From Eledone cirrhosa (taxonomy: Eukaryota), in contig OZ024746.1 of the NCBI GenBank assembly GCA_964016885.1, forward strand, positions 57,660,001 to 57,724,000: a DNA stretch of 64,000 nucleotides, in the 5' to 3' direction. Below the pieces are notes generated by a model. It did no database searches, was not told where the DNA came from, and saw only the letters and a program-made list of their open reading frames with translations. This document shows positions 28,222 to 33,116 of this stretch, in pieces (the first letter of the stretch is position 1; each line of letters begins with the position of its first letter). A program made the translations under genes and the position numbers.

Positions 28222-30693
28222 AAACGACCTTCCCCTATTGGCCCCTATACATCCTTCCCACCCCTCCTCAACCTGAAATACGGCCACTATGGTTATGTGA
28301 GTACCTCTTTCCTATCTACATTTTCTGCCTGTAGAGGTGTTTTTATGTGCCTGCGTATATGCGTATATTTATTGCGTACTTATTTATTTGTATGTGTATG
28401 TATTTGTGTGTATGTGTGTATATGTATGTGTATGTATATATATATAGGTATGTGTGTATATGTGTTTTATGTGTGTATTTTTATGTATGTATATGTATGT
28501 ATATATGTATATGTATGTGTATATATATATATATATATATATATATATATATATATATATGTGTGTGTGTATATATGTGTATGTATGTGTATGTGTATGT
28601 ATGTATATGTATGTATGCATATATATATATGTATATGTATGTATGTATATGTATATGTATGTATATATATATATATATATATATATATATATATATATAT
28701 ATATATATATGTGTGTGTGTGTATGTGTGTGTGTGTATATATATGTGTGTGTGTGTGCAGGTGTGTATATATATATATATATATATATATATATATATAT
28801 ATATATATATATATATATATATATATATATGTGAGTACCTCTTATATATATGTGAGTACCTCTTATATATATATATGTGAGTACTTCTTTCCTATCTACA
28901 TGTTCTGCCTGTAGAGGTGTTTTTATGTGCCTGCGTATATGCGTATATTTATTGAGTACTTTTTATTCGTATGTGTATATATTTGTGTGTATGTTTATAT
29001 ATATATGTGTATGTATATATATATATGTATGTGTGTATATGTGTTTTATGTGTGTATTTTTATGTATGTATATGTATGTATATATGTATATGTATGTGTA
29101 TATATATATATATATATATATATATATATATATATATATATATATATGTGTGTGTATATATGTGTATGTATGTCTATGTGTATGTATGTATATGTATGTA
29201 TGTATATATATATGTATATGTATGTATGTATATGTATATGTATGTATATATATATATATATATATATATATATATATATATATGTGTGTATGTGTGTATG
29301 TGTGTGTGTGTGTGTATATATATATGTGTGTGTGTGTGCAGGTGTGTATATATATATATATATGTGTATATATATATATATGTATATATATATATATATA
29401 TATATATATGTATATATATATATATATATATTTATATATATATATGTGCGTGAGAGAGAGTGTGTGTGTATATATTTGTGTGTGTGTGTATGTGTGTATG
29501 GGTGTATATATATGTATATATGTTTGTATGTAGTATGTATGTGTATGTTTATGTATATGTATATATGTATATATATAGATGTATATATATAGATATATAT
29601 ATATATTTATATATATGCATGTGTATGTGTGTGTGTGTGTGTATATATGTGTATATGTGTGTGTGTGTATATATGTGTGTGTATATGTATGTATGTATGT
29701 ATGTGTGTATGTGTGTTTGTATGTGTGTGTATGTGTGTATATGTATATATGTGTATATATGTTGTGTGTTTGTGTGTATGTGTATATATGTGTGTATATG
29801 TATATTTGTATATATATATATGTATATATATATATATATATATATATATATATATATATATATATATATATATATATATATCTATATATATATATATATA
29901 TATATATAAACAAGGTTTAGTAAATAATGAAAAAGTTTCAAAATAAATTTAAAAAAATTGACTTTACCTACTATAGTTACCTTTACCGATCGGTTTCGAA
30001 TCCCAAAAATAATACGGAGACCATACGGCCTTCGTTGCAAAGAAAGATTCTCGTCAGAAGGTTCTTTTCATTCAAAGAATATAAAATTCCTGAATTTAAA
30101 TCACAAACTAGCGCTATCAAAAACTGTTCCTGGGATGAGAGTGGATGATGTAGAACAGGTTTATCAAGGGCCGTAGCAAAGATAGAGGCAAAAGGAGGTA
30201 GGTCAAACTAGCCACCGCTATTGCTAGCAGCAGTCGGAATTACCCGGTTTGTTCTCAACGTTAGTGGAGGTAGTAGTAATATGAAATACGTCCCTTCACG
30301 CACAAGGCGCCAAGGTACGCATGTATTGTCCAACCAAGTGCCAATGTGGTTCAATGGCGGGTTAATAAATTAACGAGCCAGAACAAATATAAACAAGGTT
30401 TAGTAAATAATGAAAAAGTTTCAAAATAAATTTAAAAAAATTGACTTTACCTACTATAGTTACCTTTACCGATCGGTTTCGAATCCTAAAAATAAAACGG
30501 AGACCATACGGCCTTCGTTGCAAAGAAAGATTCTCGTCAGAAGGTTCTTTTCATTCAAAGAATATAAAATTCCTGAATTTAAATCACAAACTAGCGCTAT
30601 CAAAACATCATCCACTCTCATCCCAGGAACAGTTTTTGATAGCGCTAGTTTGTGATTTAAATTCAGGAATTGTATATTTTTTGAATGAAAAGA

Positions 30694-30777
30694 ACCTTCT
30701 GACGAGAATCTTTCTTTGCAACGAAGGCCGGATGGTCTCCGTTTTATTTTTGGGATTCGAAACCGATCGGTAAAGGT
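30694..30777 (+). ncRNA. Type I hammerhead with palindromic stem III and long stem II
   Basis: ACCTT-CTGACGA-GAATC..GATTC-GAA-ACCGATCGGT-A-AAGGT. Confidence 0.88.
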
Positions 30778-31176
30778 AACTATAGTAGGTAAAGTCAATT
30801 TTTTTAAATTTATTTTGAAACTTTTTCATTATTTACTAAACCTTGTTTATATTTGTTCTGGCTCGTTAATTTATTAACCCGCCATTGAACCACATTGGCA
30901 CTTGGTTGTACAATACATGCGTACCTTGGCGCCTTGTGCGTGAAGGGACGTATTTCATATTACTACTACCTCCACTAACGTTGAGAACAAACCGGGTAAT
31001 TCCGACTGCTGCTAGCAATAGCGGTGGCTAGTTTGACCTACCTCCTTTTGCCTCTATCTTTGCTACGGCCCTTGATAAACCTGTTCTACATCATCCACTC
31101 TCATCCCAGGAACAGTTTTTGATAGCGCTAGTTTGTGATTTAAATTCAGGAATTTTATATTCTTTGAATGAAAAGA

Positions 31177-31260
31177 ACCTTCTGACGAGAATCTTTCTTT
31201 GCAACGAAGGCCGTATGGTCTCCGTTTTATTTTTGGGATTCGAAACCGATCGGTAAAGGT
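31177..31260 (+). ncRNA. Type I hammerhead, second plus-strand copy
   Basis: Same motif, 483 bp downstream. Confidence 0.88.
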
Positions 31261-33116
31261 AACTATAGTAGGTAAAGTCAATTTTTTAAAATTTACTTTG
31301 AAACTTTTTCATTATTTACTAAACCCTGTTTATATTTGTTCTGGCTCGTTATTAACCCGCCATTGAACCACATTGGCACTTGGTTGGACAATACATGCGT
31401 ACCTTGGCGCCTTGTGCGTGAAGGGACGTATTTCATATATATATATATATATATATATATATATATATATATATATATGTGTGTATATGTATATATATAT
31501 ATATATATATATATATATATATATATGTACATATATATTATGTATGTATGTATGTGTGTATGTGTGTATGTATGTGTGTGTGTGTGTATATATGTATATA
31601 TGTGTATATATGTTGTGTGTGTGTGTATGTGTATATATGTGTGTATATGTATATTTGTATATATATATATATATATATATATATATGTATATGTGTATAT
31701 ATATATATATATATATATATATATATATATATATATATATATATATATATATGTGTGTGTATATGGGTGTATGTATTTGTGTATATATGTATGTTTGTGT
31801 GTGTATGTGTGTATATATATATATATATATATATATATATATATATATATATATATATGAATATATGTATGAATGGTGTATCTCTCTCTCTCTCTCTATA
31901 TATATATATATATATATATGTATATATATATATATATATATATATATGTGTATGTATGGTGCTTTTTCCTTATATATGTGTATATGTGTGTGTGTCTGTA
32001 TATATATATGTATGTATGTGTGTGTATGTATATGTATATATTTGTCTGTGAGTATTGATTTATTATTTTCTAGATCGTACAGGCAGACCTTACGTTGTTG
32101 AATTAAGATGTTTCACTCTAGCGATCTTATTAGTCAATTGCAACTATAACATGTAAATGTTCATCAAATGTTAATTTATATATATATATATATATATATA
32201 TATATATATATATATATATATATATATATATATATACATATATATATGTGTGTGTTTGTGTGTATGTGTGTGTATATGTGTATATATATATATATATGTA
32301 TGTGTGTGTATGTATGTATGTATGTATTATATATATATATATATATATATATATATATATATATATATATATATGTGTGTATATATATATCTATGTGTAT
32401 ATGTATGTATATGTATAACACATGTATATTTGTGTGTATGTTTGTATGTGTGTGAGTGTATATATATATGTGTATATATGTGTGTGTGTGTGTGTGTGTA
32501 TATATATGAATGTGTGTATGTGTATATATATATATATATGTGTATATATATATATATATATGAATATATTTATATATGTGTGTGTGTTTTTATGTGTGTA
32601 TATGTGTATGTGTATGTGTGTTTATGGTTGCGCGCGAGTGTGTGAGTGAGTGTGTTTTTTTGTGAATGTGTCTGTTGATTTTTGGCATATAGTTGATTAG
32701 TTTAAGAGAAGTTCGAAGATAATTGTAAGATATGCACTCAGTATCTTGAATCTGTCTACATAATTCTCTAAACCTTTGTCACTTAGTAGAACCTTAATGA
32801 ATTTAGCTTTTAAAGAATCTCCCTTTCCTTTAATTCTATCTACCATGACTGACCCCCCACTGATCTTATATACATCTGTTAGCTTGAGAGAAACTTAATG
32901 ACAAGGAATGGTATGCCATCCGGAACCTGTTTATAGAATTCTGTCTGCCTTTGTTACTCTAAAAACAAAAATTAATAAAAATAAACTATAACTTTGTAGA
33001 ATTAGCTTTTAATGAATTCCCTTTTCTATCCACCAATGACCTACACACATCCCACTCCCCATCCTCTCCTATCACTTGTAGAGACCTATAAATACCATAT
33101 TTATTTTTTGATACCC

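Follow-up and report, generated by a model that had tools for sequence, protein, structure and literature searches.

A 483-nt hammerhead retrozyme of Eledone cirrhosa with two fixed arm ends, probably copied into (TA)n tracts by a Penelope-like element

[quoted passage not shown] Amphibian ribozymes that act as dimers are described with a palindromic stem III (PMC7229834, section 15). Among the EN+ PLEs, the Hydra clade is characterised by an RWK-like motif, DKT, a CxCX5C linker and, C-terminally, a GIY-YIG domain with CxxC/CxH, and its members are found at (TA)n targets and have a hammerhead near the 3' end (PMC8557442). An inverted layout with a tail on one side is a known layout of PLEs (PMC8557442; PMC3846280), for which self-priming on an antisense template (PMC3846280) and EN-mediated resolution (PMC8557442) have been suggested, while the making of such insertions is left open in the Discussion of PMC8557442 and in PMC3846280. 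In the case of Poseidon PAc of the green anole, the protein, for which a dimer is predicted, cuts both strands and extends them, and reverse transcription starts at two internal RNA sites bounding the tail (PMC11167929).

The element described here lies in a window of 64,000 nucleotides of Eledone cirrhosa DNA (contig OZ024746.1), and all coordinates count from the first letter of this window. It is a non-LTR retrozyme, a published class, with a unit of 483 nt that is dispersed in the genome, and it was likely copied into (TA)n in trans by the reverse transcriptase (RT) and endonuclease of a Hydra-type PLE. Unit numbering starts with +1 at the first base past the predicted ribozyme cut (after 30772). 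The features of the locus are as follows.

25877 to 26994, minus strand: inverted short arm of the host PLE, hammerhead core at 25937, end at about +21
26992 to 33252, plus strand: long arm of the host Hydra-type PLE, 5'-truncated RT ORF to 28221, end at about +92
29820 to 29903, no strand: left (TA)n target tract, read from the sequence
29904 to 30605, minus strand: left arm, 702 nt or 1.45 units (unit 345-483, one full unit, unit 1-80)
29979 to 30062, minus strand: type I hammerhead motif 4
30462 to 30545, minus strand: type I hammerhead motif 3
30605 to 30605, no strand: head-to-head junction of the 5' ends of both arms, 1-nt overlap, without palindrome
30605 to 31438, plus strand: right arm, 834 nt or 1.73 units (unit 316-483, one full unit, unit 1-188)
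30694 to 30777, plus strand: type I hammerhead motif 1, predicted cut after 30772
30773 to 31255, plus strand: full 483-nt monomer, cut site to cut site
31177 to 31260, plus strand: type I hammerhead motif 2, predicted cut after 31255
31336 to 31438, plus strand: tail on one side only, covering unit 81-188 from one end site to the other, 103 nt here against 108 nt in the unit
31439 to 31477, no strand: right (TA)n target tract, read from the sequence

The inverted arms are 99% complementary over 702 nt each (29904-30605 and 30634-31335), and the repeat period is 483, with agreement at 213 of 216 positions in the left arm; the last partial unit of the right arm has a 5-nt deletion. The unit has a G+C content of 38.7%, and its longest sense ORF starting with ATG encodes 13 aa. 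Both 3' ends point outward into TA, the left one at site A (..CCUUGUUUAUAU) and the right one at site B (..UUUCAUAU), each passing into (TA)n, so that the outer ends lie at the fixed unit sites +80 and +188, while the inner ends at 345 and 316 are free. The initial annotation had read here a 483-bp unit in about 1.45 antisense and about 1.7 sense copies with four hammerheads, unlike a 310-bp unit and inserted in (TA)n inside the 3' region of another PLE. The measured arms agree with this, the four motifs are found two per strand, BLAST revealed no similarity between the 483-bp and the 310-bp unit (best match 9 nt, E 0.75), and an intact copy of the host PLE is collinear with both flanks of the insertion.

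Like the metazoan non-LTR retrozymes, the family has tandem non-coding units with one type I hammerhead each and a G+C content below 50%, PLEs co-occur with it, and the length of the unit falls inside the 51-972 bp range of 10.64898/2026.07.22.740005. By contrast, the unit is longer than the 170-400 nt circles tested in PMC7229834, has a long stem II insertion, is strictly targeted to (TA)n and forms two-armed insertions with two fixed ends, and no pLTR parent was found for it. With the Hydra-clade EN+ PLEs (PMC8557442) it shares the (TA)n target, the hammerhead, the inverted 5'-truncated copy and the one-sided tail, but the 483-nt element is without ORF and its tail measures 108 nt instead of 30-40. 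As in Poseidon PAc (PMC11167929), two fixed internal end sites are located 3' of the hammerhead and both DNA strands are used; however, Poseidon PAc starts without homology to the cut DNA, whereas sites A and B read UAU/AUAU and could pair with (TA)n. The pairing of one site with each arm is seen in the 483-nt family and is not reported for Poseidon PAc in the available text of PMC11167929, and among titles and abstracts, with the subscription literature mostly outside, no report of this pairing or of two-armed retrozymes was found. The retrozyme class, the link to PLEs and the inverted one-tailed layout are already in print.

The hammerhead motif is composed of stem I (ACCUU/AAGGU), the core CUGACGA, a long stem-loop II, GAAA and the palindromic stem III ACCGAUCGGU, with cleavage predicted after GUA, and CUGACGA, GAAA and GUA are intact in 4 of 4 motifs of the window. 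A search of Rfam gave no hammerhead among the 150 matches listed out of 153, which are microsatellite look-alikes far below the gathering scores. In the analysed insertions, core and stem III are kept in 188 of 203 segments, and core and stems vary by 0.3-0.8% compared with 3.7% elsewhere in the unit (84 insertions), part of this low variation being ascertainment, since 45 of the loci were found by a ribozyme 32-mer; the core and the 5' stem strands outside the 32-mer pattern also show low variation. Among 18 aligned copies across lineages, both sides have changed in 9 of 24 named pairs (stem I from A-U to G-C, five in stem II and three in an upstream hairpin), and 93.8% of the cells pair, compared with 26-55% when slid, a covariation that rests on few clades and thus on few independent events. 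Within the young family covariation is weak, with 4 of 47 pairs and 13 of 500 shuffles as high. The refuting case of a ribozyme not conserved across copies, named in the initial annotation, is not what is seen, since the motif is kept and covaries in lineages about 30% apart. In older lineages stem III becomes ACCGCGGU or ACCGCGCGGU, and its commonest forms are still palindromic, as in the dimer-acting ribozymes of amphibians (PMC7229834). For the isolated ribozyme an alternative fold has the lowest energy (-21.9 versus -19.8 kcal/mol for the active fold; z 0.05), stem I is absent from the circular minimum-energy fold of the unit, and the whole unit is weakly structured, slightly better than shuffles (z -1.6 to -1.75). 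A short hairpin 3' of site B pairs across lineages as CUCUC/GAGAG, AUCUC/GAGAU or UUCUC/GAGAA and is a candidate protein-binding signal.

The ORF at 27109-28221 belongs to a truncated PLE reverse transcriptase, although the RT domain was not matched in a Pfam search of this ORF. In the long arm of the host, a 315-bp in-frame deletion removes most of the GIY-YIG domain, and a microsatellite-rich 3' region contains the 483-nt element and is followed by a pLTR with its own hammerhead at 33123. Since the intact host copy (L147) aligns on either side of the insertion, the retrozyme sits within this 3' region. Close relatives of the host are abundant in the genome (the best 111 of 71158 first-look candidates were scored), and the protein encoded by intact copies is about 713 aa long and contains RWR, DKT, CxCX5C and, C-terminally, YIG. 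Two of them, L147 and L148, read RWR, DKT, CNCLNKEAC, YIG, CDLC and CMH, and the copies end in (TA)n. Matching of these motifs by eye to section 11 of PMC8557442 would place the host in the Hydra clade, although it is longer than the under 3 kb that are usual there. The host is itself two-armed: among 27 scored ends, 9 are located at +21/22, 12 at +89-93 and 6 elsewhere, and the copy in the window has one arm at each end site. Because the host Hydra family and the 483-nt unit are not similar at the DNA level, the Hydra family is a candidate helper only. A hairpin near the start site is common to the host and the 483-nt unit, which is suggestive only.

The ribozyme 32-mer has 1162 exact matches in the genome and its reversed control has 0, so that the family is not due to chance. 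The matches are dispersed over many contigs, near-identical long arrays are present, and for the subfamilies carrying the 32-mer about 550 insertions can be extrapolated (the first 100 matches correspond to 47 loci). The family occupies hundreds of TA microsatellites, often as two back-to-back arms. For the analysis 84 insertions were taken: 38 best matches of a search in which 40 of 1314 candidates were scored, a further 45 loci found among the first 100 of the 1162 exact matches, and the window. Before counting, L033 was reduced to one copy, the other being a segmental duplicate, remote fragments were removed from L054, L126 and L138, and small nested hits were discarded. An ORF is joined to the unit in 0 of the 84 insertions. 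Hydra-like fragments occur within 8-10 kb around 31 of the 84, where they are on the far side of TA tracts, some way off or in opposite orientation, and every sufficiently long arm leads back into the unit. Among the single-arm copies, 12 have a 5' flank other than TA; these flanks have nothing in common, and their two Hydra matches are on the opposite strand. Being dispersed and not joined to an ORF, the element is a non-LTR retrozyme, and the initial annotation, which had taken it for a second retrozyme-like family within a class of elements and had asked whether the unit is ever attached to an RT ORF, was right about the class, which is a published one (PMC7229834; 10.64898/2026.07.22.740005).

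Four contig sets of one study provided variants of the family and the lead to older lineages, which at 65-72% identity are still non-coding units of 481-487 bp; no in-line ORF was found in 25 and a further 30 of their loci within flanks of about 1.5 kb. For another set of 30 loci, ORF linkage was judged by flank. When this ribozyme was searched as a pattern with its stem II shortened, one deleted copy of the family came up, and a pattern search for a related stem II gave 0 matches. Flanking direct repeats of 12 nt occur in 3 of the 84 insertions, the targets themselves being (TA)n. An assembly artefact is rejected, since the junctions are distinct and variants are private at dozens of loci.

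The ends of the arms follow a rule. Among 127 arm 3' ends, site A (+80/84) accounts for 71 and site B (+177-196) for 50, which leaves 6 at other positions, and 121 of the 127 adjoin TA. Half of the 84 insertions (42) are two-armed with the tails outward, and of these 36 combine A with B, one pairs A with A, B with B does not occur, and in 5 an end falls outside both sites; the remaining 42 comprise 41 single arms and one tail-in pair. The EN+ PLE insertion signature, a head-to-head inverted copy with a one-sided tail, is thus seen as A+B in 36 of the 37 scorable two-armed insertions (P ~3e-10 versus 0.5). Older lineages end near +81 and +187-195, and one set of their two-armed insertions, scored by eye, contains 6 A+B, 1 A+A and 3 unscorable. 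The initial annotation had taken the different phases of the two arms as a sign of a circular or multimeric template; the phases do differ, but they do not point to a circle, because the outer ends are two fixed Penelope-type sites that also exist in the coding host. The 5' ends are evenly spread. Arms cross up to 10 ribozyme junctions, 68 of the 127 crossing two or more, and with 228 junctions crossed and 0 of 127 5' ends at the cut site, the template was closed or uncut at the ribozyme. Run-off at the ribozyme cut site is thereby rejected as the source of arm 5' ends.

In L1 twin priming, both target ends prime reverse transcription, which leads to an inversion. The 483-nt family would resemble this in priming from both target ends and in its inverted product, but differs in that both sites are fixed, the 3' ends point outward and the arms overlap on the template.

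Both arms of an insertion carry one haplotype and derive from one template: in the 26 insertions with enough overlap, comparison of the two arms at 1105 diagnostic sites gave 13 differences, as against 18-64% for unrelated arms. At least two units share each of 26 locus-private variants, of which 15 occur in all covering units and 11 in some, and 9 are present across both arms (6 of the 15 and 3 of the 11). In L137, for example, each of the 12 covering units has 202A>G, and in the window element 226C>A is found in the left and the right arm. Variants fixed in all covering units fit a monomer that was copied repeatedly. The partial variants alternate in L034, L035 and L065, which would fit dimer templates or later duplication, and are adjacent in L032, L110 and L126, which would fit later duplication. 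Since 11 of the 26 are found in some units only, a single monomer circle is insufficient, and the pattern requires dimer circles, linear multimers or later duplication. In L041 the ordered pair 441G>A then 377G>T is repeated in both arms in register from the centre; there and in L032, it is the centre and not the primed ends that sets the register of the shared variants. Array length and within-array divergence show no overall trend (rho -0.05, n=62), although the 3 longest arrays are nearly uniform. A search for scars of RNA editing found no A>G excess among singletons (14 A>G versus 31 T>C, p 0.17) or among locus-fixed changes (8 versus 6, p 0.28).

Around the observed end rule, read-through and shared haplotype, we infer cleavage, circularisation, the identity of the enzyme and priming on the RNA, which would give the following course of events. 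Tandem copies would be transcribed, and the hammerhead, perhaps as a dimer via the palindromic stem III, would cut the RNA to monomeric or oligomeric length, after which a host ligase would circularise the pieces. The PLE protein would then bind the RNA just 3' of the ribozyme and cut both strands of (TA)n. One DNA end would be extended from position +80 of the RNA and the other from about +188, both U/A-rich; the rule itself is read directly from the arm ends, and the chemistry is what this step presumes. Two-site priming by a PLE on the 483-nt RNA appears to be the simplest reading by analogy with the in vitro behaviour of the Poseidon PLE (PMC11167929). Each arm crosses ribozyme junctions, up to 10 of them, and its stopping point varies but never coincides with the cut site. 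Eventually, the two cDNA ends would be joined head to head, in many cases overlapping little or not at all; if the second arm is absent, a single cDNA end would instead be joined straight to the target.

Several observations count against this reading, since the helper is a candidate only, the partial private variants (11 of 26) clash with a single monomer circle, the shared variants of L041 and L032 keep register with the centre, the active hammerhead fold is not that of lowest energy, the unit is weakly structured, and the covariation comes from few clades with few independent events. Furthermore, ribozyme cleavage is unnecessary for insertion in vitro (PMC11167929), and 8 of 9 Xenopus retrozyme dimers failed to cleave (10.64898/2026.07.22.740005).

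Taken on its own, the DNA is compatible with both a circle and an uncut multimer as template. The same family and the same PLE enzyme could accordingly be combined with a linear multimeric template that is transcribed through a tandem source array and left uncut, with no circles involved, which we regard as somewhat improbable yet a serious competitor. In some arrays (L041, L066) the units differ in a fixed order that is repeated by both arms, which implies a template of two or more unlike units, and unprocessed RNA was the main in vitro substrate in PMC11167929. However, partly cut RNA should give run-off at the cut site, which none of the 127 arms shows, the ribozyme has been retained, with compensatory substitutions, across lineages that are about 30% divergent, and the variants fixed in all units of the long young arrays L137, L065 and L110 fit repeated copying of a monomer.

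It is unlikely that priming occurred only once, with the second arm a fold-back or self-primed copy and the two ends produced by endonuclease resolution of an intermediate. A few junctions are near-perfect palindromes (L042 with 437/437, L048, L033 and L137), the variants in register from the centre in L041 and L032 would be expected, as they would from gene conversion, and a staggered resolution could also yield one end of each kind. By contrast, the inner ends are at most 10 nt apart in just 4 of 42 insertions (about 1.8 expected; hand count), neither arm of L041 contains the other in variant register, and in vitro there are two RT start sites with both strands extended (PMC11167929).

That the units are satellite DNA, formed locally when unequal crossing-over multiplied the truncated pLTRs of a coding PLE, is very improbable and as a general account refuted by the ORF, flank and relative evidence: a pLTR origin with local tandem growth has been proposed (10.64898/2026.07.22.740005), the sharing of variants by adjacent units in L126, L110 and L032 resembles later duplication and three long arrays are nearly uniform, but none of the 84 insertions has an ORF junction and arms that are long enough return to the unit, the 12 non-TA 5' flanks are unrelated to each other with their two Hydra matches on the opposite strand, the relatives at 65-72% identity are still non-coding units, and later duplication may add units yet leaves dispersed insertions with paired ends unexplained.

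Copying in trans by a Hydra-type PLE stays the preferred reading, and a fuller version of it is put forward tentatively. The family may be a long-lived RNA parasite without a surviving coding parent, whose 483-nt ribozyme circle has retained, while about 30% of the sequence changed, two fixed points of initiation with a conserved hairpin 3' of each; a dimeric Hydra RT might roll round this circle from both ends of the (TA)n break, with one site per strand, and the same rule might cover all EN+ PLE insertions.

Because the class and the layout were already known, the gain consists in mechanistic evidence and not in a new kind of element. The 483-nt family itself is new, and the genomic evidence that it provides on how PLE enzymes write such RNAs is unusually clean. 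It offers a minimal natural substrate for these enzymes together with a sharp prediction, namely that one DNA strand starts at +80 and the other at +188, and that copying passes through the ribozyme junction. If true, the rule of one site per strand would account for the inversion and the single tail in the insertions of every EN+ Penelope-like element.

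The 310-bp hammerhead array (window 13597-18227) is likewise two-armed, with 11 + 4 ribozymes, and its arms have unlike 3' ends, at about +137 in one and about +165 in the other (nt from the array's own predicted cut site). A tiny two-armed insertion at window 45091-45260 consists solely of the ribozyme end of the host Hydra, the Penelope-like element (PLE) that surrounds the 483-bp retrozyme; its 3' boundary lies near +21 in one arm and near +92 in the second.

Elsewhere in the genome, the retrozyme at locus L049 occupies a central position within an inverted pair of flanks, and that at L032 carries on both sides a unique direct repeat resembling a target-site duplication. 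Locus L192 holds an array of at least six units of the older, diverged lineage, each 487 bp long and with the core CUGAAGA.

The window also contains the following features:
2523-3799, 7402-8542, 20675-22120 and 55602-57039: fragments from four or more additional Hydra-like families
12785-13031: (TAAAAA)n tract, 41 copies
23242-23799: Tc1/mariner-like helix-turn-helix transposase fragment, under the Pfam cut-offs
23893-24606: 250-bp inverted pair with a CTGATGACGAAA motif in each arm

The motif found in both arms of the 250-bp pair may represent a minimal hammerhead. The further Hydra-like fragments share 30-53% amino-acid identity with the host, and several of them are contained in inverted pairs.

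Compared with the intact copy at L147, the host Hydra in the window has a 315-bp in-frame deletion at 28074-28075, by which most of the GIY-YIG domain is lost. In L147 the ORF is separated from the pLTR by a (TA)/(TG)-rich stretch of about 2.5 kb (L147 4921-7400), and the window retrozyme is located in a similar tract. This intact Hydra thus brings its own target sites.
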